NCBI GenBank assembly: GCA_918797485.1
Contig: CAKKNE010000003.1
Span: 3,286,001 to 3,350,000 of the forward strand
Reading direction: 5' to 3'
Length of the DNA: 64,000 nucleotides
Source: Pelagomonas calceolata
Lineage: Eukaryota
Below, piece by piece: positions 4,170 through 42,161 of the stretch. A program made the translations under genes and the position numbers. The stretch's first letter is position 1. Each line of letters starts with the position of its first letter. The notes beneath the pieces were generated by a model. The model was not told the DNA's origin and did not search any database. It saw nothing but the letters and a program-made list of their open reading frames with translations.

Positions 4170-4198
4170 TTTATTTATTTATTTATTTATTTATTTAT
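4170..4198. repeat. (TTTA)n microsatellite; another at about 58946-58993
   Basis: Direct reading. Confidence 0.9.
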
Positions 4199-6369: not shown

Positions 6370-6674
6370 TGATATTTACCAAAATGCACATTTCAATGAA
6401 ACGAACGAAAAGGATAGGGGACAATTTTCACCCCATATTCTCCTAAGGGAAACAAGAGCTTACCCTCATGAAAAGGGGGAGTGCGATAAATAGGGCGAAA
6501 TACCCCCCCTATCCTATACCCTTCCTATACACTTACATCACCCTTCAACACGCAACGCGTAATAAACACAGTTAAAACCAAAACTACTTAGTGTATTTAA
6601 GGTAGCTCCGCGGCAGACTATCTCAGCCGCCGTACTCCCAAAGGTGCGTACTCCTTTGGTCTTGCATATTCGCA
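6370..6674 (+). mobile_element. 3' end of an LTR retrotransposon: polypurine tract, then LTR 6482-6674
   Basis: AAAAGGGGGAG is followed by TGCGA...TCGCA; near-identical to the reverse complement of 21563-21875. Confidence 0.85.
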
Positions 6675-6915
6675 GTTAAAAGAGAGAGTGAGAGCTAAGA
6701 GAATGGTGTTTTTTTTGCGGGGGCCGCCGTCGGCGAGCTGAGGAGGTCCCGCTGGGGGAGTTGGACGTGGACCCAACAGACTCGGAGGAGCCAGTGGCCA
6801 ACGTTGCGGGCGCGGGAAGTTCATGATTCCGCACATGCTTCGCCTAGGTGGGTGCGGGCCCGGGGCCACTCTGAACCTAGCTGAAGCACACTTTGAGGCA
6901 CTGCAGAACCTATTG

Positions 6916-7983: not shown

Positions 7984-8234
7984 CTTCTTGTAGTACTAGC
8001 CTGCACAGCAGGTACCTATCCGCTGTAGAGAGAGAAACCTACTAGCCCATCCTACCCTAGATATGTATCTCCCACTCTCTAAATTTGAGTCTATACATTG
8101 AGTGTGTATCGACGCTACGGTGTAAACCAATTTGCTAAAAAACACTCTCGTAGTTAGGTTGGCCCAGCCTCTGGCTGGTGAGCTAGGACCCTGCTACCTT
8201 ACATAACGCTGCGACATACTCTTGCTACGCTGAT

Positions 8235-8316
8235 ACCTACGGTACCGCAGTACGGTACCTACGGTACCTACGGTACCAGCAAGTACCGTAGGTACCGTGG
8301 TACCGGTACCTACGGT
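8235..8316. promoter_or_regulatory. GGTACCTAC/GTAGGTACC array in the divergent TTL/kinesin promoter region
   Basis: TACGGTACCTACGGTACCTACGGTACC...GTACCGTAGGTACCGTGGTACCGGTACCTACGG. The same motif recurs at other gene 5' ends. Function is inferred only. Confidence 0.5.
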
Positions 8317-8374
8317 GGAGGGCAGATTTTACAACTGGACTGTCATAAGAACTCGGCAAGGCCGTCAATTTAAT

Positions 8375-10504
8375 ATGCCAGATGAAAGTGTTAAGGTAGT
8401 TGTACGCGTACGACCGTTGTCGCGTAAGGAACAGCAAGATGGGCACCTTGCGACGACCGTGGCTGACGAAGATCAAGGCACAATAACCTGCAATAACCCT
8501 AAATCTGATATCGCAGATCCACCAAAAGTCTTTACTTTTGACGCCGTCTTTGCTTCCGGCTGCAACCAGAAATCTATTTATGATAAATGTGGAGCTACGG
8601 TAGTGGAAGCGGTACTTGATGGTTACAATGGAACAGTCTTTGCCTATGGTCAGACAGGTGCAGGTAAGACCTTTACCATGGAAGGTTTATCAGAACCCCC
8701 CGAGTTGCGTGGCATTATCCCAAATGCATTTCAACATATCTTCGACAAGGTGGCGCTCGCCGCGGAGCAACAGCACTTTCTAGTGCGCGCATCATACCTC
8801 GAGATTTACAACGAAGAGATACGCGACTTGTTGTATTTATCACGTGTCGGCTACTAATCTTTAAAATAGTTTATTTTATTCTAAAATGGTTGTGTGTAAT
8901 AGCGTCAAAAACACAGGTCCAAGGAACCAAAAAATAGATTGGATCTCAAAGAAAATGTGGACTCGGGTGTATACGTCAAAGATCTGACCTCTTTTGTGGT
9001 CAGGTCGTCTCATGAAATTGATCAAGTTATGCAGGCAGGTAAAAAAAATAGATCCGTTGGGGAGACGCTAATGAATGCTGGTTCGTCCCGGTCTCATGCC
9101 ATATTTACAATCATTGTGGAATGCGCAGAAGTAGATGAGAAGCGTGGTGAGCACATTCGCGTAGGAAAATTAAATCTCGTGGATTTGGCCGGGTCAGAAC
9201 GGCAGTCAAAGACAGGAGCAACTGGCCATCGACTCAAAGAAGCCACAAAAATTAATCTCTCACTGTCTGCACTTGGAAATGTGATATCTGCTCTTGTTGA
9301 TGGCAAGTCACAACATATCCCATACCGCGACTCTAAACTTACTCGATTACTTCAAGATTCTTTGGGCGGAAATACAAAAACAGTGATGTGCGCCAATTGT
9401 GGCCCAGCAGGCTATAATTTTGAGGAGACCATTTCGACTTTACGATATGCCAATCGAGCCAAAAACATCAAGAATAAGCCAAAGATTAACGAGGATCCCA
9501 AGGACGCTATGCTCCGTGAATTCCAGGACGAGATAAAGCGGCTCAAAAACCAGTTAGCTAACCAAGGCAACAGAAATCACAGGGCTACTATGAATGAGTT
9601 CATGCTGGAAGAAAAAGTCGTGGAGAAAATAGTTGAAGTGGAAAGAATTGTTGAGGTGCCGGGCGCAGCGACGGAGGAAGAGCTGGCTGAGCTTAAAGCA
9701 ACAGTGGATAAGGAAGCAGAACAAATGCGTCTCCGAGCTGAGGCTGAGATGAAAGAAGTCATCGACTCCCAGACGCGCACGACCAAAGAGCATGAGAAGC
9801 TACGTCAAAAACTCGATGCAGAAGCAGGTCGCGCTGCGCACTCTGAGAAGCAGCGCATTCTGTTGGAGAGGAAATTACGATCCATGCAAGAAAAACTGAT
9901 GCAGGGGGGTAGACTGTTGGATAAGGCAGCCAAACAGGAAGCGATGTTACGCCGCGCTCAGCTTGAACTTGAGGAACGTAAAGAACAAGAACAGGCCCTT
10001 GCACGCCAAGTCCGGGCGAAGGAAGAGGATGTATTTGCCCTGGAGGAAAAGTATGCGAGTAAGCAGGATGAAGCAGATGATAAGACCAGGAAACTAAAAA
10101 AACTTTGGCAGAGGCTTCAGTCGTGCCAAGCAGAAGCTCATGACGTGCAGGAGGAGTTCCAGCGTGAACGAGAGGACATGCTCGACACGATTCGTGAGCT
10201 TTCAAAACAACTTAAGCTAAAAGAGTTTCTAATGAAAAATTTTATACCCATTGGGGAGGAGCGGAAATTTGAAGTCCGTGCCACTTGGAATAACGAAGAG
10301 GAACTGTGGGACCTTGCGTGCCCCGCATTTTCTCATAGCCAACACCACTTTAAAGGGCACTGTTCTTGGTGTTCGGCCGGTGTGATAGACCTAAATCGAG
10401 ACTACACAGACGCAGACGAGCCCAGCAGCCATATACCAAATCCTTATCACAATTATGATAAAAGAGATGGAATTGCCAAAAAAGTAAGTTCATCTAAGGT
10501 TTAA
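8375..10504 (+). CDS. Kinesin-II (KIF3/FLA10-type) motor subunit; intron 8833-8916
   Basis: ESVKVVVRVRP, P-loop YGQTGAGKT, SSRSH, LVDLAGSER, HIPYRDSKLTRLLQDSLGGN, kinesin-2 neck NKPKINEDPKDAMLREFQ.EI, then a coiled-coil stalk. Confidence 0.93.
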
Positions 10505-10798
10505 AACTGAAATGAATGATAAACGCACTACTTTGTATCTCCTGCAACATGAAATATATATACTACTTATGTCTTGGACGGTATGCTGCAGTCTATTACA
10601 CTCGTGGCTCATGTTGCAGTATTTGAGCTGTCTGAACCGCCGGCGAATAATTGCAAGCTGGAGCTGGTGGTCTAGTGGTTTTAAAAGAAAACATACGGCA
10701 ACGGAAATGAGCCGAGGTCGGCCGAGTGGCTAGGCGGTCCTGGCTAAGCAAAGCAATATTACTAGTACTACTCCTCCCCGGTACTACCGGCGTGACTC

Positions 10799-11122
10799 CT
10801 AAGGTGCAATTTACGTGGGAAAAACGCGCAAACTACGCGTAAAGCACCGCTACAGGAGATCCGAGTCCCACTGGCACGTAAAAAACGGCGTAAAAAAGGA
10901 GCCGAGCCAATCGCTAGTTTTATGCTGTTGCGAGGTGCGTACTCTAGGTGTGCGCTTGCGCCGTACTCTAGGTGGCCACCAAGGCCTCGTTTAGTCGCTC
11001 TGCTGCGTATGTGCGGGTTTTACAAATAATTAAAAAGCCCGCGTAAATTGCGCGTAAAACACGCGTAAATTTACGCTGGACCGTTTCTCACGTAAAAAAC
11101 GCCGCACGTAAATTGCACTTAC
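10799..11122. mobile_element. MITE family C (hAT-like, degenerate 8-bp TSD)
   Basis: TIR CTAAGGTGCAATTTACGTG / CACGTAAATTGCACTTAC; flanks CGTGACTC / TGTAACTC (6 of 8 match). Paralogs at 43417-43868 and 23071-23230. Confidence 0.8.
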
Positions 11123-11399
11123 TGTAACTCCTCCTCCTCCTCCTCTACTACTACTTAGCGGGGACGCGACTCGGACACGAAACGCCACTGTAATCGTGAC
11201 CTCAGGTTGACTGGCGCAATGTTCCAGCTTATTTTGGGAGGAGCCCTGTCCGCAGCTAAGCGCACGATTGACCACAAACTCACAAGGACATCCTAGACGT
11301 ATAATGTATTCTAGTTAAATAAATAATCGGACGTTGTTAGCTTAATAGAATCGTCGAGTCATGCACCACCGAGCCTACACCGAGCCACCAAGATTGAGT

Positions 11400-14300
11400 T
11401 TAGTTCTGGTCCTTGCAATGAAATTTTGAACAGCGTCGCGTATGCTCAATGATGGAGAGGGATATCGGGAGACCATAGCACACTGGGGCGGCACCATTAA
11501 GGTTTCTTAGTTTTGTCTCTCTCCTAGCTGCGTTTAGAATGTCAGGTATCGGACAACTTGGGCTTTTAGCCATTGACTGTAGCAGATACAAAGTGATACG
11601 ATCAATATCACGATCTGTGACGTCCCACAGCATAGCAACAACGATCGGAGTCCCTCTAGCAAGCAGCTCGAGAGCCATTCCCTTTGCTTCAAAATCACCT
11701 ACTCGCGAGAGAGCACCCGAGGAACAGCCCATAAGCAGCACTGCAGACATGAAATTAGATGCAACAGCAGACTCCAGGTAAGCGCCTCCATAGCCGTGAC
11801 CGCAAAAAAGAAATGCAGCACAGTTCGGCATCTTGGCGGTCAGCTGTGCTGCGACATCACGGGGTGGCATATCACCGAGAGCAGCATATGACCACACAAG
11901 ACCACTCGTGGCGTTTGTCTTAGTATCGCCCAGATATTTTGCCAGCTTATGACGGGTAGAGGGCAAGTTCGCCTGTGGATCGACAACGCAGCAGGCACGC
12001 ATAGGAATATCATTATTGATGGTATCCGAGACACTTAGATTCATCCCTGTTGCAAGTGATAATGCAAATGCGAGGGAAGGCACGCGTGATATTGGTGCAG
12101 AACGTGGGACAGACAGAGCTTCGAAAGGCAAAAATTGGAGCTGCTTGTCCAGTGCTAAAATCATAGGTTGGCGAGCTTTCGCTACCTTTCGGGGTTGCAT
12201 CACACATTGTGATGTAATGGCCGCCTTTTGAAGCACACCAGCGAGCCGACCAAGCAGTGGCCTTTTTAGGCCCAAGTTGCTGAGCCTCAGGTCATCCAAA
12301 GCGGCCTTGAGATCCAAAATCGTCAGCTTGTAGAGAAGAGTGAGCCACAGACGAAGCAACATCTTCATGATGCAGGGGGAAGCGGTTCCTCTTATGTCAA
12401 CAACCCCAAACCTACTGGCACAGAGAAGCGTGTTGGCTTCCAGTAGAGTTATATTGGGTGCAGCCCAGAAGCATAGCTGCATGATCTGGTATTCAACACT
12501 AATCGGAACTTCGGCACTTTGCTTAGGACGGAGTATGGACGCAGGCTTCGTTGCAAAAAGCGCACGCATTGCACCAAGCCAAGACTTGTCAAAGCCAACA
12601 AGCCCAGCATGTAGGACTGAATCGAGAGAGTGCCGTTGGCACCACCAGATTCTGCGCGCAGCAGTATGATTGCTCCTGCTGGTAAAAAGCAGCTTCGAAC
12701 GTTGAGGCAGCAAGGACGCATCTGCGCGAAGACCAGCAGCAGAGGCCTTCAGAGCCTTAGCAGAAGTTCCAAGGGGAGAAGTCGAAGTATCTGAATCGTA
12801 CCAGCTTTCTGGGAGGCCTGAGCATAGTGTGATTGGTTGTTGACCACGCTGAAGCCGTGAAATCACAAGGTGCCCTGTTGGCGATATGAAACCTGCAACA
12901 AGGGAAAACGTTTTAGGAAACGGCGCCAGCAGCCGATCGAGAACATTCCGATCATGTGTTTCAAGAGTGTCGCACCAGCCTAGAGCTCCTGCATTTGGAA
13001 CTTCAAGTAAGCCCATGAGGAGATCATCTACTCCTGCCATTGCTCGGCTCAAGAGGCTATTTGAGTCGTTAGAAGTAGCAAACGCATGGCGTGCACGTCC
13101 CAATGACGAGTGTGCGAGAAGCGCCACAAGTGGGGACGAAACCGCACCTGGGACAAAGTGAAGTGCAGCCACAGTGAGGGCGCGAGCACTCTTTGCCGCA
13201 AGTTTCCACTCGCATTTTCGCCGGGCATAACTAAAGGCATGACGAAGCAAATCCAGGACTTCCGATGCAGCAGCAGTGTTGCTAGATGCCACATTGAAAA
13301 GTTGTCGAGCCAGGCGGTATCTAAGCCAGGAACTTCTTAGCATGATGGATGATGACTGAATGCGCAGTGACTCGCGATAAGTGGCCACTGCCCGAGACCT
13401 GCGACATCCAATGTCGATAAGACGGGCGCCGCTGCTTATAAGAAGCTGACAATGCCGCAATAAGCCAGCGTGACTTTGTTTGCCACTGATGGCATCGACC
13501 TGCCAAGGTGACGATTCAGTGAGGCATTCGTCTATGACTTTGAGGACTTTACTTGCTGACTTGTAGCACCTACCTGCAATTTCCAGTTTACCTATGCGCC
13601 TAAGTAGATCGCCCTCATTAAGAACCTGCTCAAGACATCGGATATTCTCAGGAAAGTCGATGCTATTATCATGACTAGCAAGGTCTAGAACCAATGCTGC
13701 ATCACCCCAATCCTGCAAGGAGATAGCAAGACACAATTCAAGCCCTCTTGCCGCCTGCCTTAATTTGTGACATTGCTTGATACTAGCTGCACGCTGTACA
13801 TATTTGGATGCACGTGCACTGCATCCCCGAACAAGCCAGAGCCGTGCAAGATGAAGCCAGAGTACACCCTGGATCATTGCCTTCGACTGTGCAGAATCTC
13901 GAATGGCATATAAATTGCGTTCACACCAGCAAGGTGGGAACCTCGAAAGTATCTCGAGAGAACCAAGAGCATTTGTGGCGCCCGAAATATTTGCAAGATG
14001 CATTTGTGTAGCGAACATTTCAAGCCCAATTTCTGCAGCTGCTCGCCGTTGCATATGGATAAGTGCTTCGTCCAACGCAATAGCTAGGTGTGCTTCAGCT
14101 ACGTTGCCACTCGGCTTGCCTTGCACACGAAGTAAATGATGCCGGTCATCGAAGTAAGGCGGGGTTCCAACCTCACAGCAACATAGATTTTCAAATGGTG
14201 CTACAACAGAGTCCCCACCGACAGTGACTAACATCGAAGAAGACGGCCCTATTGATCCACTACGAAGAGCCGCAATCGCAGACGACGCGATAATTGCACT

Positions 14301-16382
14301 GTGCAGCTGTGGTACTAGCCTCGCCAGTGCACCACATGAACGAATCTCACAAATGACGTTTTCGACAGATGCAAATGCATCCCGCAACAATGCTGTCGCT
14401 AACGCCAGATGTTCTACGTGTACTGAATGTAGATCGTGCAGCCCCTCAAGGCCTGAAAGCGCAGATGCTTCGTGGGTCACATCTCTGTAATGATTATTTG
14501 CATTCGACTCGCAGCCTATTGCTAATGCTAGGGAGCAACACGCAATGGAATCAGTAGCTGAATTAGAACCTGGTGACCCCATGCAATAATTTGCAAGTAC
14601 GGCACCAGCAGTATAAGAACCTCGGCGCACAAGCGCGATACTCGCGCGAGACAATGTTAGCGCAGCTCTAGCTACATCACATGTTGCCAGCTCCTCGGCC
14701 GCAGTGATAAATGTTGAGATGCTACTTTGTCTTTCGCAGATCCCGAGTCTTTTTCTAAGTACATCCTTGACATGCATCAAACCTGAAGATTGGAGTAAGT
14801 CGAGGAGGGATGGAGGTAACATAGTGTTAACTACAGCCCGCGAATAGCATGTGACAGCATCAAAAATCGAGGCCTCGTCAATGCAGTAGCAGGTCGACCA
14901 CGCAGCAGCCGCAGCAGCATCAAAGTCTCGCTTAAGCCGGTCCAGACAATTTGCAATCCCAATCCATGGCACGGCGCTGCCACTTGTCCGCAGACTAGCA
15001 CGTTTTAGAAGTGCAGCAGCCACGCCAAACGTACGAGTATCTGTTGCTCTGCGAAGAACTACGAGGCCAGTTGCTGCATAGCCCATCGCAGCTCGCTGAG
15101 CTGACGACATGCCCTCAGCAGACTTGGAATGTGTGGCTACTTTGTCGAGCGCACTACGCTTGGCAGCAAAACTGGCTGCAAGCCAACATGCATCTGCACG
15201 CTGGTTGCATGCACTACTTTCCTTCATATACTTCCCCCATTCATGGCGCGCCAGAGTAAGAAGAACTGTCTCATAATGTGAGTAGCCACATGCTTTTGAA
15301 TCAGAGTAATGTCCAAATGCGGTTGGCGCATTAGAAAGTGCTATCCATGCACGCCGCCACACAGAAGAAATATATTGGTCTGTCTTACTTATCTCCAGGG
15401 CACAATTAAAACACCTGTTAGCCTCGGCAAGTGCTATTGTTGGCTTTCTTTGCTTTCCAAGATCTGAACAGTAAAGAACTCCGTGAAACAATGGCCAGTC
15501 CCCTAGCTGTGCCCGACCCCTAGCTCGGACGCGCGCCGCTCCAAGCTTATCGCCAGATGCGTCTAAAGTTATCGCGCGTCGCGTGCACCACTCAAACATG
15601 ATGTGTGGCGTGGCCCTCCACGGATCAAGCTGTCCGTCAAGAGACGAAAACCACTGCACACGAGCAACAACAGAAGCAGGAGCCATCTTTTTGTGTGTCG
15701 AAAGGCCATGTAGGGCTTCACTCGTGACAATATCCACAGCTTCAGGTGCTACGGCGACAAGTACTTCTAATGCTGTGCGTCTACAGGTCCATGCTATGTC
15801 TGCCAATTCTGGAGATGCCGCCTCAAGTGCAAAAGCACCTTTCCAAAGTGTCGCTCGTAGTTTGTCTGCATACTCTCGCGGAGATATTGACTGCACCCTG
15901 CATTGCTCCTCTGTGGACATCACATAGAGTAATGTGGTAATAGCCCTGGCACTCCACGCACCTTTAGCAGCCAGTGCTTTTGCCCCCTTTAAGCTTGGGG
16001 TGGTGACGATACTGTTAAGTTGCAGCCGTGCAGCATTCACGCTAGCTCCCGCTCCGAGTGCTACTGCAGTGAAAGACCACGCATCTGCTCGTCGTTCTAG
16101 TCGTTCTTTAAGAACATCCGCCAATAGCAACGCGTGGATATTCGTGACCTTGTTTTCCACTGCGCGACTGATGGCTTGGTAGAGCCACTTATCACACGAT
16201 GAATCGTCTCCAGGGTAAGCCGCAAGATCATTGAGAGCTACAACTGCATCCTCGAAAGCTCTACGGCTGGCATGCTGCTTCAACCCAAGCTGCGTGCGTA
16301 ATACTAGTGACCTCACCTCTCCACCGCCCTCTAGTTCTACCCTATTGCAGCGTGCATTCGCACTTGCCTCCCGGCGCGGCAT
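11400..16382 (-). CDS. ESP1: Separase (peptidase C50)
   Basis: About 1660-aa ORF; C-terminus has LPFEAL, VVDPQANL, FLFCGHG (catalytic His), LLMGCSSG (catalytic Cys), LWDVTDRDID and APVCYGLP. First ATG is at 16382; the ORF-track start at 16424 is not ATG. Confidence 0.9.
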   Translation of the reverse strand: MPRREASANARCNRVELEGGGEVRSLVLRTQLGLKQHASRRAFEDAVVALNDLAAYPGDDSSCDKWLYQAISRAVENKVTNIHALLLADVLKERLERRADAWSFTAVALGAGASVNAARLQLNSIVTTPSLKGAKALAAKGAWSARAITTLLYVMSTEEQCRVQSISPREYADKLRATLWKGAFALEAASPELADIAWTCRRTALEVLVAVAPEAVDIVTSEALHGLSTHKKMAPASVVARVQWFSSLDGQLDPWRATPHIMFEWCTRRAITLDASGDKLGAARVRARGRAQLGDWPLFHGVLYCSDLGKQRKPTIALAEANRCFNCALEISKTDQYISSVWRRAWIALSNAPTAFGHYSDSKACGYSHYETVLLTLARHEWGKYMKESSACNQRADACWLAASFAAKRSALDKVATHSKSAEGMSSAQRAAMGYAATGLVVLRRATDTRTFGVAAALLKRASLRTSGSAVPWIGIANCLDRLKRDFDAAAAAAWSTCYCIDEASIFDAVTCYSRAVVNTMLPPSLLDLLQSSGLMHVKDVLRKRLGICERQSSISTFITAAEELATCDVARAALTLSRASIALVRRGSYTAGAVLANYCMGSPGSNSATDSIACCSLALAIGCESNANNHYRDVTHEASALSGLEGLHDLHSVHVEHLALATALLRDAFASVENVICEIRSCGALARLVPQLHSAIIASSAIAALRSGSIGPSSSMLVTVGGDSVVAPFENLCCCEVGTPPYFDDRHHLLRVQGKPSGNVAEAHLAIALDEALIHMQRRAAAEIGLEMFATQMHLANISGATNALGSLEILSRFPPCWCERNLYAIRDSAQSKAMIQGVLWLHLARLWLVRGCSARASKYVQRAASIKQCHKLRQAARGLELCLAISLQDWGDAALVLDLASHDNSIDFPENIRCLEQVLNEGDLLRRIGKLEIAGRCYKSASKVLKVIDECLTESSPWQVDAISGKQSHAGLLRHCQLLISSGARLIDIGCRRSRAVATYRESLRIQSSSIMLRSSWLRYRLARQLFNVASSNTAAASEVLDLLRHAFSYARRKCEWKLAAKSARALTVAALHFVPGAVSSPLVALLAHSSLGRARHAFATSNDSNSLLSRAMAGVDDLLMGLLEVPNAGALGWCDTLETHDRNVLDRLLAPFPKTFSLVAGFISPTGHLVISRLQRGQQPITLCSGLPESWYDSDTSTSPLGTSAKALKASAAGLRADASLLPQRSKLLFTSRSNHTAARRIWWCQRHSLDSVLHAGLVGFDKSWLGAMRALFATKPASILRPKQSAEVPISVEYQIMQLCFWAAPNITLLEANTLLCASRFGVVDIRGTASPCIMKMLLRLWLTLLYKLTILDLKAALDDLRLSNLGLKRPLLGRLAGVLQKAAITSQCVMQPRKVAKARQPMILALDKQLQFLPFEALSVPRSAPISRVPSLAFALSLATGMNLSVSDTINNDIPMRACCVVDPQANLPSTRHKLAKYLGDTKTNATSGLVWSYAALGDMPPRDVAAQLTAKMPNCAAFLFCGHGYGGAYLESAVASNFMSAVLLMGCSSGALSRVGDFEAKGMALELLARGTPIVVAMLWDVTDRDIDRITLYLLQSMAKSPSCPIPDILNAARRETKLRNLNGAAPVCYGLPISLSIIEHTRRCSKFHCKDQN

Positions 16383-16739
16383 GGGACCGTAATACACCGT
16401 AGGTACCGTAGGTACCATTATCAAAGAAGTAAAATCGACTCTTAAACTGGTTTCTCAGGGCACTCCTCTATCAACGACCGACGACGAGCTACGCCCAAGG
16501 GCGCCTAGCGCGGCGGTGGATGCGGCCTCTCCTCCTAAGCTTGAGATACGAGCTTGTACTGGAGCACTTGGACTGGAGCACTTGCATTTGAAATTGGAAT
16601 TGCAAGTTAGTAGTCAGTCACTTAGTCACTTTAATCGCTAGCGCTAGGCGGCCCACCCGTGGAACGAGCGTTGTACTTTCTTCTGTACATTGTAGCCCTA
16701 CCGCAGTATAATATTATATCGAAATTAACGCACTCAAAC

Positions 16740-17792
16740 ATGGCTAATTCAGCTTACACACACACAACTTCTCCTAAGCCCTTGTTGTCAAAGATGAAAA
16801 AAACGACGTACAGAGCAGAGGACGAAGAAAACATAATAACAAACAACATAATGTTTGATCGACGTGTTGTACGCGGCAATACGTACGCCGCCCAGGTTGT
16901 AACTCACAACACGCAGCGGGAAGTTGAGCGTATGAGATATGAAAGCGAGCGGACGCTACGGAGGGACGCAACATGCCAACGCAAGGAGCGGCTAGCTAAG
17001 CCAAGCACCCCTCCGCCCGCAGAAGGGAGAGCTCACATCAAAGCTCAAACAGACACTTTCCTCGAAGAACTGTCTGATCGCCCGGTGGAGAGTGAGGCTG
17101 TGACGCAAACTGAGGCTATTTTGGACCGACCTCCATCGCCTTTGTTCATCCCATCAAAGACTGGAGTTGACAAAGAAACGGATATACCTGGCGGTGACCT
17201 TTTTGATTTTGACATTGAGGTAAAGCCAATACTCGAGGTATTAGTTGGTAAGACCCTGCGCGTTTCAATGATGGAGGTAATGGAAGAGGCCGAGCTTGAT
17301 GCTATTCAGCGCCGCCAGATGGAATTTGAACAAATGCGGAATGCTGAGCTTGTTGAGGTCCAGCGCCTTGATGCAGAAGCCTCGAGGCGTTTCGCAGAAA
17401 AGCAGCGGCGTTTCACTCAGGAGACGGACCGGCTTCGTCAGCAGGCAGAGCTTGGGCAAAAGGTTGCAGCCCGTGCATTTGCCAGGAGCTATCTTGCGAA
17501 TCTTTCCGAGCTTGCCTTCGACCAGCTTGAAGACTCAGGCCACTTTGTTGATCCTGTTGAGAAGGAGATTCAGGATAGCTTCATCCCATGGTTATTCGAT
17601 AGTGTAGTTGAGACCACCAATAATCATATCAGCTCAAGTAGCTGCGTTGATGCTCTCATTGTCGACGCAATTGAACTAGCCAGCAACCTACAGAGCGATG
17701 TCATTAAGCAAATAAAACAAAAAGAACGTGCTCGGGTCTTTGCCGTCGAGGATGCACAAGAAATAAAAGAGGCTGAGGGGACGGCAAAATGA
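16740..17792 (+). CDS. RSP3: Radial spoke protein 3
   Basis: NIMFDRRVVRGNTYA, LDRPPSPLFIP.KTGVD, LFDFDIEVKPILEVLVGKTL...MEVMEE.EL; likely start MANSAY at 16740. Confidence 0.93.
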   Translation: MANSAYTHTTSPKPLLSKMKKTTYRAEDEENIITNNIMFDRRVVRGNTYAAQVVTHNTQREVERMRYESERTLRRDATCQRKERLAKPSTPPPAEGRAHIKAQTDTFLEELSDRPVESEAVTQTEAILDRPPSPLFIPSKTGVDKETDIPGGDLFDFDIEVKPILEVLVGKTLRVSMMEVMEEAELDAIQRRQMEFEQMRNAELVEVQRLDAEASRRFAEKQRRFTQETDRLRQQAELGQKVAARAFARSYLANLSELAFDQLEDSGHFVDPVEKEIQDSFIPWLFDSVVETTNNHISSSSCVDALIVDAIELASNLQSDVIKQIKQKERARVFAVEDAQEIKEAEGTAK

Positions 17793-18329
17793 TGCCCTTT
17801 GCACGCAGCCCTAACCATACAGTAGCTGGAAACAGCGACGTGGTATAGTAGCTCGCTGGTGGTCTGTGACTTTACTGGAAGTACACTGGCAATAAAAGAG
17901 GGCAATGAATATGACCTAGAATTGGAATCATCGGCAACTTGCCTCCAATTTGTCCCCAAGAGAGCATCGGGCGAACAACCCGGTCAGGTTTAATACCCTC
18001 AGGCTAATAAACTCGATACTAGATGGTGTTGCCAAAAAATACTAGTACATTGCGCGACTCAATTGCGGCACGAAACGCCACCGCGACTTACGCGTTCACC
18101 GGCCACCACTAAATGACTCAATAAAAGACGAAATCGAGATGAGAGGACACATCACAAAACGAGGTCCCCAGGGTCCCAAGGGCTACCTAGGCGAGCTCGA
18201 GAGAGACAGGGACTGCGTGTTGCCCCAGAGCGTAATCGCTCTTAAGAACACTCATCCCCCTGACTGAACTTGAATGCTTCCAATAAACGACAGTTATTAG
18301 TAGTATGTCAGTTACGATGTCCACACACG

Positions 18330-18750
18330 GACTAATTTGAGATTCGAGTTCCCAGCCACTGGCACTTGTGTTCCGGCAATTTCGGATACGGGCCCCAAAG
18401 AGTCCCTTTGTACGCCCCGAGACAGGGCTGGGGGAAAGGGGTCACTTTCGCGTGCCCAAATGGGCCTAACGTGCGGACTTAGCCTAACTTGCGGGTTTTC
18501 AGGATGAAAATAAAACCTCGCTTCCATGCTGGTAATTTGGTCTCCCAGGGGGCCTCGGTACCTATGGCGTGGGGAAGATACGTAGGCGCGGCCGGGTACC
18601 CGATGGGCTGCCAGATAGGTCGCCTGACGTGGCACGAAACGCCACCATGACTCCGATTCAGGCTGGCGACGTTCGCAGGCCACTAAAGTCGTTTCGCCCG
18701 CCCGTTTCGGTCACGTCCCAGAGGGGTACCTAGGCCCCCCTGGCTCGACT
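18330..18750 (+). mobile_element. MITE family D/E copy
   Basis: CTAATTTGAGATTCGAGTTCCCAGCCAC is shared with 21437 and, inverted, with 25443 and 59311. GGCCTAACGTGCG...TTAGCCTAACT.GCGGGTTTTCAGG is shared with 30867. Confidence 0.8.
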
Positions 18751-19349
18751 TGCCGGAACACCGGACGCCTAGGTATAGAGCTTCGTATCATTTGGGTTCG
18801 GGGGTCACCCCCCTTAACAACACTGGCCGTGGCAAGGTACAAATCCCAAAGAGGTGTAGTAGAAAACCGCCATCAAGGGCCTTTCTTTAAGTCTTCCTTA
18901 ATTTACTATTATTTCAATTCAAGTTTTTTGCCAGTGTTTTTATCTGGTAGCGACTCGGACCGAGAAATGGCCAAACAGAGCTATATGAACACCATCAAGA
19001 GAAATGAAGGTGTGAACTACTCCGAGTCCACGGTTAGCTGCCCTCGGACCTTTTTTTTGCCCGGCCGGGGGCTGCTCCGCGAGGTTTAAACCCCGTCGAT
19101 TTTAGTGCTATCCGAGCGCAGGGTAAAAAACCCGACGTGGGAAGCGTCCGTTGCAGATTGAAAACGTATGTCCGAGAATCATAAGGTCATCTGGGCTGCC
19201 ACGATTTATCCCTCTAATAACGTAGGTACCGTAACATAAGGCTTCAGCAAAGCTGCGTCGCCAACTCAATACTGCTGGAAGCAGGCCGTGGGCCGAGCTC
19301 GCGCAATCGATCATCCTCGCCAGCGAGTTGGCGCCACGCGGAAAGCAAT

Positions 19350-20981
<1,632 letters not shown>

Positions 20982-21423
20982 ATTCATTGCAGTGGTTGTT
21001 ATCTCATCCCTTTTAACGCCACAAAAATTACGCCAAACACTCAAAATCAGGCGACTCGCAGCAAACTTACAAAAATCTTTGCGGTTCTGCTACTGGGCGC
21101 CAACAACTTGAACTTCAAGAACTTCCTCCATTCCCCCTTTCGTAGGCTCATGCTTGTTGGAGCTGTACACAAAACTAAGGAATCACGCGAAATACTACTC
21201 AGCATGCAAAGAAATCCACACTGGCAAGGCTGTATTCCTGAATGGGGTCCTGACAACTTGAAGGGGGAGCCCGATTTTTAAATACATTGAATCCTCTCCG
21301 TGCACGGGCATACACAAACAATGGGAGATGCACGAAAATGGTCATCTCAAAATGGTTTGGCCCTCCCGCTCCTGGCAGCCGTTATACTAGTAACTGCACT
21401 AGTTAGTAGTTACCGTGACGGTA

Positions 21424-21562
21424 CGGGGGCGGTCTCCTAATTTGAGATTCGAGTTCCCAGCCACTTGGCCGCCGGCGATTTTGGTTGTGGGGTCCCTTTG
21501 TACGCCCCGTGACCGGGCTGGGGGGAAGGGTCCACTTTCGAGGCGAGACGCGGTCGCGAAGT
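21424..21562 (+). mobile_element. MITE family D/E left end, interrupted by the Copia LTR
   Basis: TA|CGGGGGCGGTCTCCTAATTTGAGATTCGAGTTCCCAGCCACTT. Confidence 0.75.
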
Positions 21563-23055
21563 TGCGATTATGCAAGACCAAAGGAGTACGCACCTTTGGG
21601 AGTACGGCGGCTGAGATAGTCTGCCGCGGAGCTACCTTAAATACACTAAGTAGTTTTGGTTTTAACTGTGTTTATTACGCGTTGCGTGTTGAAGGGTGAT
21701 GTAAGTGTATAGGAAGGGTATAGGATAGGGGGGGGGGGGTATTTCGCCCTATTTATCGCACTCCCCCTTTTCATGAGGGTAAGCTTTTGTTTCCCTTAGG
21801 AGAATATGGGGTGAAAATTGTCCTCCATCCTTTTCGTTCGTTTCATTGAACTGTGCATTTTGGTAAATATCATCAGGTAGCACATGGGCATTTGCCTCTC
21901 AATGAATACACTTAATACTACACAGAAGAATTGGTAGAGTGTTCTGTAGATTGTTTTGTGGTAGGTCGTGGTGGTCGTAGTTCGTGGTAATGTAGCGTTG
22001 AGATGTCGAATAATTAGCAATCATTTGGGCCACCATAAGAGCTAGGAGCTTCATTAGGGTCAAAGCGTACCGCACGTCTCACTTGTGGAGTACGAGGAGT
22101 CGTACTAGGAGAAGGTGCGTCAGGCTCATTGAGTTGCTTCTCGAGAATGCGGAGAGCATATCTGTGTAATGGATCACTCATGCCTGCTATTTCAATCCGC
22201 TGACGCTCCTGAGTGGCGACAATGTGATCTAAAGCGATCATAACTACTTGGGTATATGAAGTTCCATCTCCTTTCTCCTCGTCATCTTGTGTTTCAGTCC
22301 ATACAGGGCCCGCTTGAGCTTAACAGTTGTGTGAAGCTTGCCGTCGGTGTCCCGTTACCTTATACCTTTGGGTAGGTCCATATATGACTGCTTTGAATCA
22401 AGATCGGACTGAATAAATGCTTGCGGAATATCGGAGTGCTTGATCGGGAAGCTACCCATCTACTGTCGTCGATATCCTCGGGTGCGTCTAAAATATCATT
22501 CAATGGCTTAGGAAGTCGTTGCAATTTGGACCTCCCTTGTGCGTTTTGACATCTAAAAAGACGACCAGCAGCTTGTACAGTTGTGCACTCATTATGTCAA
22601 ATTGTTCCTTTGTACAAGTGTTGCCAAGATTTATTGACCTCTTATAGCCATCCTCTTCATCCTGATCGGGATCGAGAGGCCAACCTGGAGGTGTCTCGGT
22701 CTGCAACCTAACAAATCTTGAGAATTCAGGTAATCTCTCTCTCACATTCTATGGCAAACGCGGTTCTCCAGAGAATGCCTCTTCTGAGGGCATAACCGTG
22801 TGGAGAAGACTGACATTTTTCTATGTTCGATATGTAGCTTTGACCAGGTTTGCAGATTGCGACATAGTCTTCTGATATCTTTGCTCTACGTGCGCCGGCA
22901 GAATGTTCCTTGAAGTACTTAATGAGCTTGGGTAACTTTTGCCAGTTGCAACCCAAGAAGTATAACATTCTTCTCGTATAAGTTTCTGTCTCGATACCAT
23001 TATCACTAACAAAAAGTGCAAGATGAGGATCTTTGTCCTTAGTTACTAGTTTCAA
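21563..23055 (-). mobile_element. Decayed Ty1/Copia LTR retrotransposon (3' LTR 21563-21760, PPT 21761-21771, RT remnant near 22360-22450) inserted into a MITE
   Basis: TG...CA LTR with 5-bp inverted ends. Minus-strand peptide IKHSDIPQAFIQSDL..SYMDLPKG matches the Copia RT D...AF...L...YM..P.G motif. Confidence 0.8.
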
Positions 23056-23070
23056 GTTTAGGCTCTTTTC

Positions 23071-23230
23071 CGCAAATTACGCACAGCCGGGCGTTTTTTT
23101 ACGTGAGAAACGGCCCAGCGCAAATCACGCCGTGTTTTACGCGCAATTTACGCGTGCTTTTATTAATAAACCCGCGCGCACGCAGCCTCACTGCGGCAGC
23201 TGAGCCAGAGAGCGCCTAAAACTTTGAAAC
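23071..23230 (-). mobile_element. MITE family C, partial inverted copy
   Basis: TTTTTTACGTGAGAAACGG.CCAGCG...TTTTACGCGCAATTTACGCG is the reverse complement of 11040-11100. Confidence 0.75.
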
Positions 23231-23502
23231 GACTGCCCGTAGTGGCCGCGGGGATATCGGCGACGTCTCTGCGGGTTGGCCGCGGGGTCACGGTCACGGT
23301 GGCAGGACGACGCATGGGGCGGCTAGGCCCGCGGCCCAAGCCTGAGGACCAATAGATATAATAAGGCCCATATACCGCAGTAAGAATACCAAGTACGTTG
23401 ATTTTAGTGTACTATACTACCTAGAATCCAACGCGTTATCAGATCGATTTGGTGCGTGTCAAAGCTGCTTTGTTGACGCTGCTTGGATCTGAATGTCAGG
23501 AG

Positions 23503-25359
23503 ATGACTACGCCCGAAAAGTCTCCTACCAGAGATCATCCTGAAGAGTTCCCAAGCTCAAAAAACGAGAAAGCCACCATTGAGCTTGAAAATCAATACGA
23601 GCACAAGCTAGCTCTCGAGCTGGAACGCTTTGACCATCTGTCTGAAGAAATAGAATCCATTCAACAGAGATGCGAAAGCTTATTGCAAGCCCAAACAATA
23701 GAACACGAGGCTGCGATTCGAGATGCAGAAGGACGCACGAAACGCGTCGAAAAGGAGCTGCGCCAACAAATAGAGCGCCTGTACGAAGATGCAAAGCACA
23801 ATGAACATATGTTCCGGGAGGTAAATAGAGAATTGTGATACGGTAGGTATTGACCAGCAGCATTACGGTAGGTTCTTGACCAGCAAGAGCATGAGTACGA
23901 AACAGAGCTTCAACAACTTATGGCTGCTGCTCAAGCAGAGTTGGCTATCGAACGTGAATGTACAGCTGAAGCTAGGGGCCTAATTCAGGCTCGAAATACA
24001 AAAATTTCACGACTTGATAAGCGTCTGGATGCGCTCAAGACTGCCAGTCATGCTCGGAATGTCCTCTTGACAGCCGAGAAAGTACGCAATGCGAAGCTTG
24101 AAGCCACCCTACGACACTTTAAGCGCCACATGGAAGAGCGCGAGTCTACGCTTGAAGACAAAGAACTTTCCATTTTAAATCTTCGGCGAAAAAATGTGAC
24201 TTTGGATAATTTCCGGCTTGTGCTGGATCATCGAGTACAACGACTCGTACAGGAACGAGGGCCTATCACTCGACATGTTGAGGGTCTAGAAGCTCATATT
24301 ACCGCGATGTACGATGAACTAGAAGCAGACTATTACGAGAGGAAGAGGAGGAAGCAACAGCTAAATTCCAAGGACTCAAAAGTAATCTCTTTGGGACAGG
24401 AGACTGCAACCTTACGAGGTTTACTTCGGGAGAGAGATGCGTATATTGCCTCCTTTAAGCGCATGTTGTCCACGCTGGTTGAGGTTACGACACCGAAGGA
24501 CTTGGAAGACGCAGTCAAAAATGCATATTGCAAGTATATAAGAGATGAAGGATCACAACATCGATCGAGTGGCAATTCCTTTGAAGAACATCAGGAATGC
24601 AGACAAGTCTATCCTTATGGTCTGGATAATGCACTAGTTGAGGCGCATTCACAGCGAATTCGTGCTCAGAAAGCCACAGAGATTTCAGAGCATCGTCTTT
24701 GGGTTGAAAGGGGCAATGCCCAGCGGCTGCAGAGGGCCAGACTTGGTATGTCTTTGTTCACATTTTCCTTGCATCAACTCGCGATTAGGCGAAAACTCAC
24801 TCTTAATTGCTGAATGCAGTTCGTTAAGAGGCGAAAGCTTATCACTCGCACGAGATATCAGTCATTTGCGACAAGTAATGAAGGACCACGACGAAAAAAA
24901 GCGTCGCAAGGCACCCCAGTCGCACAAAATGGCGCAACATCATGTCTCCCCCACTCATGGTGAAAGTCATTTCGCGCTCGGCCCTAGTCTAGCGCTGCAG
25001 GCAGCTGATTTACCATTGGAATCATCTGGCAGTCAGGGGTTTCCAAGACGTAAATTCGATAGAGAACCGAAGCCGCCTACTTGGCGACCGACTCAAAAAA
25101 GACTTTATCGAGGATCTACAAGGGCACTAAATCTATTGTCTGATCGCGATGCCCGAATCGTTCAAGTAAGTCATCTTTCTTCACACATTTTGTAACTCAA
25201 AAACCATAGATGGAATCTGCACATGATGCAAACACGAGAGTAATTGAAACTCAAAAAATGGAAATCAAGCAGCTTCGTAAACAGTTGCAAAAGGAGCATG
25301 GTCCAGGGGAGTCTAGAGATGGCCAAAGGTCGACCTCTAAAATCATAAAAATGGTGTAA
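23503..25359 (+). CDS. CFAP57/WDR65-like coiled-coil protein (C-terminal half only, no WD40 region seen); introns 23821-23871, 24746-24788, 25166-25209
   Basis: LENQYEHKLALELERF, KELSILNLRRKNVTLDNFRLVLDHRVQRL..ERGP and GENSLLIAECSSLR resemble CFAP57 C-terminal motifs. Start uncertain. Confidence 0.65.
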
Positions 25360-26037
25360 AAACTGGCTCAACGCCACGACATAAGTACCCGAGTGACCCC
25401 TTTCCACCAGCCCGGTCTCGGGATCAAAATTCGCCCCCGGAAAAGTGGCTGGGAACTCGAATCTTAAATTTTGGGTCCGCGTCCTTGTTTAGACTGGAGT
25501 TCGAGCTAATCTTATCGTTCGCTCCCGGAGATGCGTCCCAGACCAGCGAGTGCCCTTGCCCGTTTTTCAAATAGCAGTCTGTGACCCCAAGTCCGACCCC
25601 CTTCAGGGAGTCAGCTACCGTCACACGTGTTATGACCGACCGGGTTATTAACTCCGAATCCCCTCCGAGGGTTATTAACAGGTTACTTACAACCCGCATT
25701 TACCCGCACCAGCCCGCATCTACCCTGGTGGCGCCAGGGGCTGTTAATTTGCGATGTGGCCATTTCACCGCCGCGATCCCATATCGGCGCAGCTATCGGC
25801 GCTCAGGCAGCAGGCCCTCCGAGAGTCTGGCCGGCCCTCCCCCTAGTATCCCAGCTTCAACTTCCCCCATGTCAACGTCAAGTAAACGTAGTCCTACTTC
25901 TGCTGGGTTCTTCCGGGCTCTTTTGGACGTCCAGTGGCCAAGTAGGTCCAGTGGGGCCGTGTAGCATACTTTCTGATTTCAATGCCCATTTGGGGATTTG
26001 TTTGTTTTGGAAAGCACCCAGCCTCACATACATTTAT

Positions 26038-27803
26038 TTAGCTTAGCGCACCGGAGGCTGTGCTAGAGACAAGGAAAGTGGACATACCACCGGAGGTACA
26101 CATCTTGAGTATCTTCGCCTCCGAGGATGGATTGTACGTGTCTCCAAGATCACATTGTGTTGGCTCGTCAACGATGTCGGTTTTATTATTGACGTGACCT
26201 AGCGCTTGACCATATGCATTATAGCCCCAGCCGCGTACCATGCCATTTCTGAGCAGAAGAATTCCATGAGCTTCGCCAACAGTACCGAAATTTACTTCAG
26301 TGCCCAACAGCTGCTTGGCAGCGCCTGCGAGCACTCGTGATGTTGCGACACCAGAAAACTTGCATTCTGAGGCTTCGTTTGTACAATGCGCTGTTTCAGT
26401 CTGGAGCGGATCAGAAACTGATATCTCTGGGTCTTTTGAGCCTATTAAACTGCCCCAAAAGTAAGAGCAGTGGCTCTCTGTTGTGCAGAGTGTTGAGTAG
26501 CGACCGCATGCAACTGATGCACAATGTTCGTGCTCCATAGAAGTCACTCCCTGGGGCCTGCCAAAACATTTTCGCAGAACATGGCCTAGCTGCCCCTCGC
26601 TATTACTGCCCCAGGCAAAAAGCTTCCCGTCCCTGAGGGCAGCGGCTGTGTGTAAGCCACCGCAGCTGAGCGCAGATATGGGATTAATTGTTGAGAGGCC
26701 TGGCAGTTTTACCTCTCGCGGCTTTTGCTGACCATGGTGATATGCCTCGTTTTGACCCCAGCCAAGCTGCCAATGTTCATTGTAACCCCAAGAGAAGAGC
26801 TTGCCGCTCGCCATAGCACAGGCAACGTGGGATTCACCAGCGGCAACAGCCAGAATCTTTTCACCTTTTATGCCCTTGTCTCCTTGTTTGTCGTAACCAT
26901 TTGCCCATGTTTCCGTGAATAGCCCCGGCCAGTTTGATGATTGATACCGGCCCCATGACCAAAGCTCACCCTTGTCATCGATAGCAACGGTGAAGTATGA
27001 ACCACAGACAACTTTGCAAAGTCGAACTTCGCGACTCATCTTGCAAAGCACTGGCTCTGCTGATTTGATTTCATTGCCTGTGCCCAACTGTCCAAAATTA
27101 TTGTTTCCCCAGGCTAATGCGGCACCACATTCAAGAGCAACTGCTGTGTGTAGCCAGCCACAATCGACAGAGACGACTCGCGCTTGAAAGACAGAGTTAA
27201 TGAGCCGGGGTTTGATTATCTCTGTTGATTGTAGGGAATCATATCCCCATTGAATGACAGCGTTTGGCGGTTCTTTTTCTCTGTCATTACCCAACATCAC
27301 ATGTAGCACACCATCACATTGCACATATAGAGACAGCTCATCATCGTCTGCCACTAATGTCCCAAATGCGTCCACCAAATATGTAGATTCCATCTGAAGT
27401 GGTGTTTGCGGATGAATCTCGGCATAGCGTTTGAGGAAAGCCTCCTTGACTAAGCGTGGTCTCGACCTACGGCAAAACTAAGAAAAGAAGCGTTTACGTC
27501 GTCGAGGGACAAAGGAAAGAACAGGCCGTTACCCCAGGAGTCATCGCGCGGGCATTTGATGCGTACTGAATGCGGCAGCCGGCGAGAGGCACGGTCGCCA
27601 TGGAATACGACAAAAAATTTAAGCCGACGTTTGCGCTGCTTGCCCAAGTGCGGGCTAAGTGCCGCTTTGTGTCTGCCGCTGTCCAACACCTGAAGTTCGG
27701 GCTCGTCATCAGATTCGCTACCGAGCTGATTCTCTGATCTCGTGACGCGAATCATAATCAGAGATTTGCAAATCAGTGATCCGTTTCTAATCACTACGTC
27801 CAT
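26038..27803 (-). CDS. RCC1/BLIP-II repeat protein; 5' exon structure (about 27394-27803) uncertain
   Basis: Repeated CG..HT...G....WG.N..GQLG units (VDCGWLHT, WGNNNFGQLG, SCGGLHT, WGSNSEGQLG). The frame stays open upstream of 27393 to about 27450. Confidence 0.8.
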
Positions 27804-29004
27804 ACATTAAAAAAGTAGGCTGCTGTATTTTATTTGCTACCAGGTCCGTTTCGATGCCCAAGGCCGCCCGGAGGGCTGCATAGGAAGGGGGGGGATATAT
27901 TCTGTGGGCCCCACCCCGACCTCCCCCCATCCGAGCAATCCCCTCGTTTTCGTGGCCAACGCGGCGGCGTTGCCGCGGCCATGGCGGCGCCCGCGGGTTG
28001 GCCCTGGAAGGCCCCAGGGCACGAACCCGCGCGGCTTGAGCATACCTTGGCTCGCTTGTGTCGACTCCTTTGCCTAAAGTACTGTTTAGCCCGTATAACA
28101 GTGGTTTTCATGTAAACGGGTTTTGTGCGCTTCAAAAATAACCCAGCAGCGGAGTCCGTTGGAGACGCTGTCTGCGGGAGAAGAAAGTTCAGTAAAATTT
28201 ATATCGATCATACAGAGGGTTCTAGGAAGACTAATAATAGCGGCTGGGAGAGCTACGCCCGGGCCGGGCCGATTCCCGCCGAATTTCCTGGACATCCTAT
28301 TTTTTATGTCTGGAGAGGTATATACGCTCCTCAGGTTGGAGATCAGTCGGAAACCTGGACTTGCGGACTCGCAAAGCCGGAAGACGGGTTGAGCCTGAGT
28401 AGTATAAAGAATTTAAAAAAGCAAAACCAGCGCATTTTTATCGACCGGGCTTTAATCGACCGGGTCCCCGATCCCACACTTTCCCCCTAAAACGCCGAAA
28501 TTTTTTACTCAGCCCCGCCCTTTCGGTGCCAACTTGGCTAGCCGCCGCGATTTCCGCCGAGGCGCCACGTGTGAGAGAGAAAACACGAGTCTGCCACCAT
28601 ATCCGGCTTTACGAGCACCTCATACGCCCCGTGTGAACGATTTCTCTACTGGATGCGACCGCCAGAGTGACTTGGCTCCGAGCGCAGCGCGCCGCGAAAG
28701 CGTCGCCCGCCAGGAGTTTCGGCGCGCGCGGGCCGTTTCCGGTGATCTCGGCGACTCTGTCTATTCGTAATATCGCTTCCGCAACCACGTGCAGGCGGAC
28801 ATGGGCCCACGTGTGCGAGGCGTGCCGCACGCCGCCGACGCGCGCCACGGCCACTTCGACCTTGATGGCAAACGCGCTAGCGGCCGTCTGTTGTCTCTTA
28901 CGCGTCCCGGAAATCTCCCGCGGCCCGCTGGTACAAGCTGGTAAGAGTACCGTGGTAAGTCGTAGAGACCCCCCCCCTCGATCCCTCCCCCCTCGAGCGC
29001 GACG

Positions 29005-30419
29005 ATGGACAGGGTATCTCGTTTTTTTGGAAACCTCCCCGGTTTGGGAGGCGGCGCGGCTCCGGCTGACGCACCACTCGTGGATACAGCTGAAAAAGTT
29101 CAGATTTCCTCTCTAGCGCTACTAAAAATGCTTAAGCATGGTACGTGCATGCTCAAGGATCCTCGCACATTTGTCCAGGTCGAGCTGGTGTACCCATGGA
29201 AGTAATGGGTTTGATGTTAGGACAATTTATCGACGATTACACTATAAATTGCGTTGATGTAACTGTACCTCCTTTCGCACGTGATGGCCATGTGTTATGT
29301 CGTCTTAGGTGTTTGCGATGCCACAGTCGGGGACGGGCGTGAGCGTATTCAGTCTGCGTGTATGTGCCTACATAGTGTGTTTTGAAGCTGCATTGCAGGT
29401 TGAAGCTGTAGACCCAGTTTTTCAAACAAAAATGCTCGAGATGCTCAAGCAAACTGGGCGACCAGAGATGGTCGTCGGTGCGCTCCTCTTGACCCCATGT
29501 GCTGCGGCAGCTAAAGTACTATGTTCTTAGGTTGGTATCACTCTCATCCCGGTTTTGGGTGCTGGATGTCGGGTAATCTTTATGATTTTATTTAGACAAA
29601 AGGCACAATTGCAGGTGTTGATATAAACACTCAGCAATCCTTTGAGGCCCTCAATCAGAGAGCTGTCGCCGTAGTCATTGACCCGGTGCAGAGCGTCCTT
29701 ACTTGCGTCTGTGATCTAGTAATTTTGCGCTCTCAAATTCGGTTTGCTGATTCTAGGTGAAAGGCAAAGTGGTGATTGACTGTTTTCGTCTCATCAACCC
29801 GCAACTTATGATGCTAGGCGACAGTCAGCGCCTTATACAATGACTAGATTTATTCTTCAATCAGGGCAAGAGCCGCGACAAACTACCTCCAATGTGGGGC
29901 ACCTGAAGAAGCCTTCAATCCAAGCTCTCATCCATGGCCTAAATAGACATTACTATTCAATGGTATCTACAAGTTAATGGTACTGTATGCATTTGCGTGA
30001 GCAGGTAATTGATTACCGTAAAAATGAACTGGAAGAACAGATGCTTACAAACCTATACAAAAAAACGCGAGTTTTCCAACGGCCCACCTGCTGCTTACCT
30101 TCTTGATTCTTAGGTGGGTCGCGGGCCTAATTACTCTCGACTTTGCTTGCCATACACTGGCAAACCACGAGATAATTGCTAATATGGCGAGGCATTCTGA
30201 AAATTATAACCTTCGAGTCAGAGACGAGGAAGGCAGGACGGTCGAGGAACTGCTAGTAGCCAACGTTGGAAAAGTGGATCCCAAGCGCCATCTTGTAAGT
30301 AATGTGGATACGCACATGTGTGAGGTTTACCCTGAACCTAGGAACATGGCGTCGATGAAGTGATGGCAGCAAACATCATGCAGGTGCTTGGAATTATGCT
30401 CAAGACGCTTGTGTTCTGA
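29005..30419 (+). CDS. RPN11: 26S proteasome lid deubiquitinase RPN11/PSMD14; 10 introns: 29141-29178, 29259-29308, 29345-29398, 29478-29530, 29573-29614, 29695-29756, 29818-29864 (GC), 29963-30004, 30067-30113 (GC), 30295-30341
   Basis: Manual splicing restores [34 protein letters not shown]...[21 protein letters not shown]...[25 protein letters not shown] (JAMM motif)...[10 protein letters not shown]...LVF*. Confidence 0.96.
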
Positions 30420-30702
30420 TGAAGGTTGCAGTCAGCACTGCTGTAGCATCCTGTTTCGCCGCGTTGGTCCAAAAGCGGAGTTCTTGGACCAAGGGATTGC
30501 AAAAAGAATAAGTGCAGAGCCACCCCACCGGCAACCCCCCGGCGGCGAACCCGCCGCCACAAGAGGGGTCTGAAAAATGTGCCTGAAAAGTGGCCACGGT
30601 CACTTTCACGGCCTGATCCCCCCCTTATCTTCATAACTATCCCAGCGTTTTGGCCGGTCGCAGTTTTCTGTCGCAGTCTGAAGGGGGGGGGGACTCCAGA
30701 TA

Positions 30703-42147: not shown

Positions 42148-42161
42148 AGATGATGGAAAGT

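Follow-up and report, generated by a model that had tools for sequence, protein, structure and literature searches.

Rule-bound six-base insertions in non-coding DNA of Pelagomonas calceolata, probable excision footprints of a cut-and-paste transposon

Genes and repeats of the locus

The 64,000-nucleotide stretch of Pelagomonas calceolata DNA analysed here (the window) carries eukaryotic genes, among them those for separase, kinesin, radial spoke 3, importin beta and the proteasome. Among named proteins, that of the pelagophyte Aureoumbra is closest to its DEAD-box helicase (82%), and hundreds of marine metagenome contigs encode identical proteins. Regions of 52% GC in P. calceolata have been described as putatively centromeric and rich in cell-division and microtubule genes (10.1101/2021.10.25.465678), and the window, with a GC content of 51%, is probably one of these low-GC regions. 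According to the same source, no transposon accumulation was seen in them; a higher TE density and spatial insulation are described for them in a later preprint (10.1101/2025.04.21.649811).

A scan with the radial spoke 3 protein recovered 21 loci, namely ten of the same species (L001-L010), five of a sister species and six distant ones. The same-species loci are orthologous metagenome haplotypes with 0.25-1.7% substitutions, and they split into two groups that differ by about 0.8% in coding DNA, which is what a weakly recombining region should show. The sister-species loci show 88-91% protein identity and a different gene order. Loci L015-L019 and L021, which are distant, AT-rich and short and hold 0-2 matches each to the motif described below, were left out. 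When contigs were placed at 80% likeness, paralogous repeats swamped the result.

Three repeat families of the window, D/E, G and B, merge into a longer composite repeat (18332-18690, 30725-31218 and 52836-53129; 14802-15450 in L001), which is present at 10-35 times single-copy depth, and relatives of some of the families occur in the sister species. No homology was found for the composite repeat, and the repeat cores of the window had no match in viral_contigs (0/5 scans) or genome_contigs (0/2). A 474-bp unit at 41674-42147, with 27-bp inverted ends (81% over 83 bp), is MITE-like and unrelated to the insertion rule reported here. Short motifs at 42323-42356 and 41908-41949 reach 4-5 times single-copy depth in three runs; the former ends in a small hairpin and CTAG, and we take it to be Helitron-like by its features.

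Several structural variants distinguish the window from the other haplotypes. A block at about 21423-25629 is inverted in L004, L008 and L010, with breakpoints near inverted D/E copies, and a 218-bp insertion at 8013-8239, with TACCTA on both sides, is seen in comparison with L005, L008 and L010. At 24568 the window is without 36 bases found in L001, L004, L008, L009, L010 and three runs; a coiled-coil ORF is thereby 12 residues shorter, with its frame kept. A probable copia remnant (21563-23060 and 6364-6674) has a 311-bp TG...CA repeat in two copies 96.5% identical and a decayed RVT_2 frame; in the window it replaces about 830 bp found in L001 and L009.

A six-base insertion rule in non-coding DNA

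The initial annotation had singled out one copy of family D/E, within 18341..18370, in which six bases interrupt a sequence that is continuous in three other copies, and had read them as an insertion. The interrupted form, ATTCGAGTTCCCAGCCA-CTGGCA-CTT, is found at 18342-18367, and the form lacking CTGGCA lies at 21447 (+), 25443 (-) and 59311 (-). Three other filled and empty pairs named with it are likewise present in the sequence. The sites compared are listed here, with the strand where one applies.

18357..18364: scar CA-C-TG-G-CA, inserted bases 18359-18364, in 9/10 orthologous haplotypes
21447..21466, + strand: D/E paralogue, empty site, by sequence comparison
25443..25462, - strand: D/E paralogue, empty site, by sequence comparison
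59311..59330, - strand: D/E paralogue, empty site, by sequence comparison
50961..50968: AA scar; the paralogue near 49454 and the sister-species copy are empty
59347..59354: CC scar; the paralogue at 21424-21433 is empty
31377..31384: TA scar; the paralogue at 31165 is empty
53262..53269: CT scar; two paralogous copies are empty
19021..19028: TC scar; its paralogue instead carries an AC scar at 36690-36697, three bases off

None of the three D/E paralogues carries the motif at the position of the 18357 scar, and nine of the ten orthologous haplotypes do, the tenth (L005) being rearranged at that point. Thus, the scar is a derived, copy-specific insertion, as had been proposed. In other families too, the position of scars varies from copy to copy, as the neighbouring scars at 19021 and 36690 illustrate. 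The alignment of the 50961/49454 pair needs an upstream deletion of about 35 nt in one copy. What did not stand is the label 'MITE' for family D/E, since no terminal inverted repeat with a target duplication was found and, in L001, the family continues into families G and B. Family D/E is simply the substrate in which the scar appears.

The four pairs (CA-CTGG-CA, AA-CTTG-AA, CC-CGGG-CC and TA-CTAG-TA) obey a single rule, in which a dinucleotide XY becomes XY-C-rc(XY)-G-XY, where rc denotes the reverse complement, with a net gain of six bases. Every scar can be split into a left part XY-C-rc(XY) and a right part rc(XY)-G-XY, so that at each end the flank is followed, past a central base, by its inverted copy, and the rule reads the same on either strand. 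The full rule, with the reverse complement of the duplicated dinucleotide in the middle, was absent from the initial annotation and points to a hairpin mechanism.

Throughout the window, 8-mers of the form XY-C-rc(XY)-G-XY number 123, against 19.5 expected from an order-3 Markov sequence. All sixteen dinucleotides are represented, with 4 to 13 matches each, TA accounting for eight of the 123. When C and G were replaced by the 15 alternative letter pairs, 14-59 matches each were obtained, and C/G forms with a 3- or 4-base duplication occurred four times and not at all, respectively. For XY that is neither palindromic nor a homopolymer, C-rc-G is the sole strongly enriched spacer (61 vs 7.75 expected); the runner-up among spacers containing rc(XY), for non-palindromic XY, is found 19 times against 4.25 expected.

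The matches and their two densest clusters are located as follows.

151..63739: extent of the 123 matches to XY-C-rc(XY)-G-XY, some 100 more than by chance
1638..2337: scar hot spot in non-coding DNA, 26 matches in 0.7 kb
42162..43397: scar hot spot with tandem runs, 26 matches in 1.2 kb

Nearly all of the matches (114 of 123) fall in the 34.4 kb outside the listed coding stretches, and the nine within the 29.6 kb of coding DNA are at chance level (control mean 9.5). About a hundred exact six-base insertions have been made in non-coding DNA under one rule. Forms with one mismatch are also in excess there (352 vs 219-269), so that decayed scars are about as numerous as intact ones. The scars are clustered, 22 of 113 gaps being 12 nt or shorter (4.5 expected), and a tandem run at 42886 has one unit fewer in runs X10 and X5.

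Target preference around XY is slight. A weak preference for C before and G after XY was found (78 of 226 symmetrised flanks, p = 0.02), and both bases flank XY at no more than 14 of 113 isolated sites. The invariant C and G of the scar are absent from the empty sites; as the target does not supply them, they come from outside.

Scar polymorphism and the search for a scar-making element

The ten haplotypes show 14 distinct six-base indels, and 11 of these are exact scars; deletions of six bases placed at random in the same non-coding stretches fit the rule 1.6% of the time. Further, a 12-base indel at 10863 consists of two adjacent scars. Representative sites, including one old scar, are given below.

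10860..10876: a TC and a CA scar side by side; the paralogue at 43416-43507 and five haplotypes lack both, and the TC scar is missing from L001 and L009 as well
18918..18925: polymorphic TT scar; in L002 its central AA holds another scar
21255..21262: polymorphic AA scar, carried by the window, L001 and L009, empty in L004, L008 and L010
27972..27979: polymorphic GC scar, empty in L009
17884..17891: old scar that the sister species shares, downstream of the radial spoke 3 gene

A haplotype tree, with weak support for where L002 and L004 are placed, shows the scars at 10860, 10869, 16547, 16687, 18918, 18921, 19076 and 21255 as gains; those at 21408, 27972, 28303 and 28379 have no firm polarity, and no scar needs a loss. 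The window and L008 differ by eight clean scars and 339 substitutions in 19.5 kb, or about one scar per 40 substitutions. The same excess is found in the sister species, where L013 has 33 matches against 4.1 in controls. The polymorphism among haplotypes, the excess in the sister species and the shared scar at 17884 together indicate a process that is old and still running. Protein variants of five genes (98 members) contained two 2-residue gaps; each lies in one divergent DDX5 member and could not be traced to DNA.

A second, TA-specific scar system is present in the same DNA. It takes the form TA-CCG-TA-GG-TA or its reverse complement (eight copies) and TA-CCGCAG-TA (four copies), at 8234-8310, 16395-16420, 34731-34765 and 56021-56080 and at 8243, 16699, 23373 and 61699. 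Between haplotypes its arrays vary by 8, 9 and 18 bases, one site has units in both orientations, and no such scar was seen in the sister contigs checked. These scars look like the result of repeated visits by a TA-targeting element, ESTA- or mariner-like.

The search for the element responsible for the XY-C-rc(XY)-G-XY scars covered genes, filled sites and contig ends. No Pfam transposase was detected in the 26 long ORFs and 96 shorter frames of the window, in six read-through frames of the hot spot at 42150-43410 or in 15 frames of the sister locus, and Rfam gave no match. The P. calceolata annotation rows listed, for which repeats had been masked beforehand, include one Tc1-like transposase and none of the CMCT clade (PMC9481584 supplement). 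No certain filled allele was found at any of the 12 polymorphic scar sites. In the window and six loci, C...G elements with a 2-bp duplication gave chance-level or internal matches only, and no convincing CA..TG or CATCA..TGATG element was seen. The loose contig ends covered (24 of 63) all lay at other repeats and none at scar sites, which does not prove absence.

Two candidates were rejected. Paralogues of a CAC..GTG candidate at 43349-43851 run past its supposed end. The recent repeat 6364-6674/21563-21878 is likely a copia LTR, as suggested by its TG...CA ends and an adjoining weak RVT_2 match (E 3e-4, under the curated cut-off).

One further insertion is an ambiguous candidate.

40426..41659: 1.24-kb insertion with GGGGCACTTTA inverted repeats and no long ORF, missing from wild contigs of three runs

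Diverged relatives of this insertion are present at lower depth. It may be a C...G element with an 18/20 inverted repeat and a TA duplication, in which case it would be a candidate scar maker and no further event would be needed. Alternatively, it may be a GGGG...CCCC, TA-specific element with three scars around it. Two related contigs that start at 40433 and one that ends at 41652 favour the GGGG...CCCC reading; another related contig matches to 41656 and favours the longer end.

Origin of the scars and comparison with known systems

The observed rule, excess, polarity as gains, polymorphism and absence from coding DNA are probably explained by excision footprints of a cut-and-paste DNA transposon with predicted C...G ends and a duplication of any 2 bp. 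The invariant C and G of outside origin, the strand symmetry and the duplication of XY suggest such ends and such a duplication. Insertion of the element would turn XY into XY-[C...G]-XY. At excision, a nick one base into the element would free a 3'-OH on each non-transferred strand, which would attack the opposite strand at the element border and give a flank hairpin with the terminal C of the element at its tip. A host nuclease might then open the hairpins just past the tip, turning the left end into XY-C-rc(XY) and the right end into rc(XY)-G-XY, and end joining through the shared rc(XY) would yield XY-C-rc(XY)-G-XY for any XY. As the duplication would be equal in length to the opened arm, microhomology would always be present, and this would explain why one product dominates among the scars (61 vs 7.75).

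A toy model run as a consistency check gave the scar at every site only if the nick lies one base inside the element, and never with nicks zero or two bases inside. An element with G...C ends was rejected, as it would lose one terminal base at each jump, and so was a 4-bp CXYG target, given the small number of isolated sites (14/113) flanked by both bases. Against this reading stand the searches above, which gave no transposase, no certain filled allele and no convincing C...G element, as well as the clustering of the scars, which, with up to three scars at the 40424 junction, requires strong local re-insertion. With a few elements jumping repeatedly in a poorly recombining region, scars would accumulate and filled sites would stay rare. 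SNM1/Artemis-like, Ku and POLQ-like genes are present among the P. calceolata annotation rows listed (PMC9481584 supplement). The likeliest scar maker would be an element of the CMCT clade (relatives of EnSpm, Plavaka and Transib), at about an even chance.

There is an outside chance that no mobile element is left and that a host enzyme, either a domesticated CMCT/RAG-like transposase or a SPO11/Topo VI-type cutter combined with C addition and hairpin closure, writes the scar into non-coding DNA of low-GC, putatively centromeric compartments. A domesticated or trans-acting transposase, RAG- or Kat1-like, would insert and remove a short-lived, host-controlled end, so that filled states never persist. 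This very improbable variant would account for the extreme uniformity of the product, its persistence across the species split and the lack of filled alleles; however, no candidate gene was found, the scars have no site specificity, and ordinary conservative transposition likewise predicts far more scars than elements. A cutter of the SPO11/Topo VI type, which we also consider quite improbable, would act on 2-nt 5' overhangs by fill-in, addition of an untemplated C, hairpin formation (the 3' end attacking the protein-linked 5' end) and end joining, with no transposon. The failure to find an element, the non-coding and hot-spot-like clustered distribution of the scars and the weak preference for C before and G after XY (78/226, p = 0.02) are in its favour, as are the presence of SPO11 in P. 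calceolata (10.1101/2021.10.25.465678) and the reports that SPO11 leaves 2-nt 5' overhangs and is able to reseal nicks by reversing its 5' linkage (10.1101/2024.11.20.624382). However, it requires an invariant C addition and hairpin closure, neither of which figures in the account of SPO11 given in the latter source; the bias of mouse SPO11 at -3/+3 is clear there, and no such bias exists at the scars. In addition, low-GC regions are proposed to suffer fewer breaks (10.1101/2021.10.25.465678). The second, constant TA-specific scar in the same DNA, which resembles element ends, also argues against such a cutter.

Mariner-type enzymes nick inside the element, and a mariner-like exit without hairpins could leave one base per end, with snap-back repair synthesis writing the inverted dinucleotide. 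A POLQ-like gene among the listed annotation rows (PMC9481584 supplement) is consistent with this route. Nevertheless, a one-base loop is implausible, varied products would be expected where one form dominates, and all sixteen dinucleotides are used rather than TA alone; we consider this route even less probable than a domesticated transposase. Slippage, a selected binding motif or an assembly artefact is barely conceivable. Tandem runs do exist, and that at 42886 varies in unit number; yet sixteen different words follow one context-dependent rule, insertions are nested in the centre of others, and identical scars are found in independent assemblies and runs. The scar that L002 carries within the central dinucleotide of the 18918 scar, in particular, cannot be produced by slippage, and this group of explanations is largely refuted.

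If the scars are excision footprints, they record an excision chemistry, with a flank hairpin bearing the terminal base of the element at its tip, a 2-bp duplication and one repair product, and they predict the ends and the clade of an element not annotated here. We have not found this chemistry described before, and the geometry of the scars appears to be new; the literature covered held no description of a flank-hairpinning transposase that nicks one base inside its element. The scars, which are invisible to repeat finders, would further show heavy, continuing transposon traffic in low-GC regions. As unmistakable and probably irreversible gains, they can serve at once as markers with which to trace the haplotypes of a phytoplankter that is abundant worldwide, and a comparison of scar density within low-GC regions and beyond them is a direct test of whether homologous repair is lacking there. 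If a host enzyme were responsible instead, it would be a rule-bound insertion mutator that predates the split from the sister species and fires about once per 40 substitutions. The literature covered, from which most subscription papers were missing, contained no description of such a scar or of pelagophyte footprints.

The footprint of Tc1/mariner elements consists of TA, element end bases and TA, is confined to TA and has no inverted target copy. The scar resembles it in being stereotyped and in retaining what would be the terminal bases of an element between duplicated dinucleotides, and differs from it in using all sixteen dinucleotides and in carrying an inverted target copy in the middle. 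The target duplication of hAT elements is 8 bp, unlike the 2 bp of the scar. V(D)J coding joints carry P nucleotides. They also pass through flank hairpins, as the scar is proposed to do, and hairpin formation at flanking ends is common to hAT excision and V(D)J recombination (PMC2803484); however, RAG cuts fixed signals and gives diverse joints (PMC2803484), whereas the sites here are random and the joint is fixed.

The CMCT clade, comprising EnSpm/CACTA, Mirage, Chapaev, Transib, Plavaka, ESTA as well as Lanisha, has CA..TG ends and 2-5 bp duplications, with which the 2 bp seen here agree (PMC12730594). The clade, to which Transib and RAG1 belong, is defined by a DDE transposase carrying the motifs C(2)C and H(3-4)H (PMC12730594). 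In PlavakaB the ends are CATCA..TGATG and the duplications 2-3 bp (PMC12730594), whereas only the terminal C and G can be inferred here, and Plavaka elements occur in red algae (10.1101/2025.02.11.637652). By its sequence, the scar is thus consistent with membership of its putative maker in this clade. Pelagophyte introners insert in genes, with an 8-bp duplication in the Aureococcus sp. example (10.1101/2022.06.06.494994), in contrast to the 2-bp duplication and the lack of a coding excess here.

There is a close likeness in form to Ac/Ds (hAT) footprints in plants, budding yeast and Candida albicans, which are also short inverted flank copies arising from hairpins and microhomology (PMC5873905). 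These palindromic insertions around a central base, mostly joined at microhomologies, are a documented sign of hairpins (PMC5873905). Their centre is the complement of the flank base and they are heterogeneous, with 28 types in 128 clones (PMC5873905), whereas the centre here is a constant C or G and there is one product. Further, the scars are read here as an accumulated record, some 100 of them within 34 kb. The scar works in the manner of a hAT or RAG hairpin footprint, yet it is neither a hAT nor a mariner footprint, nor an introner product.
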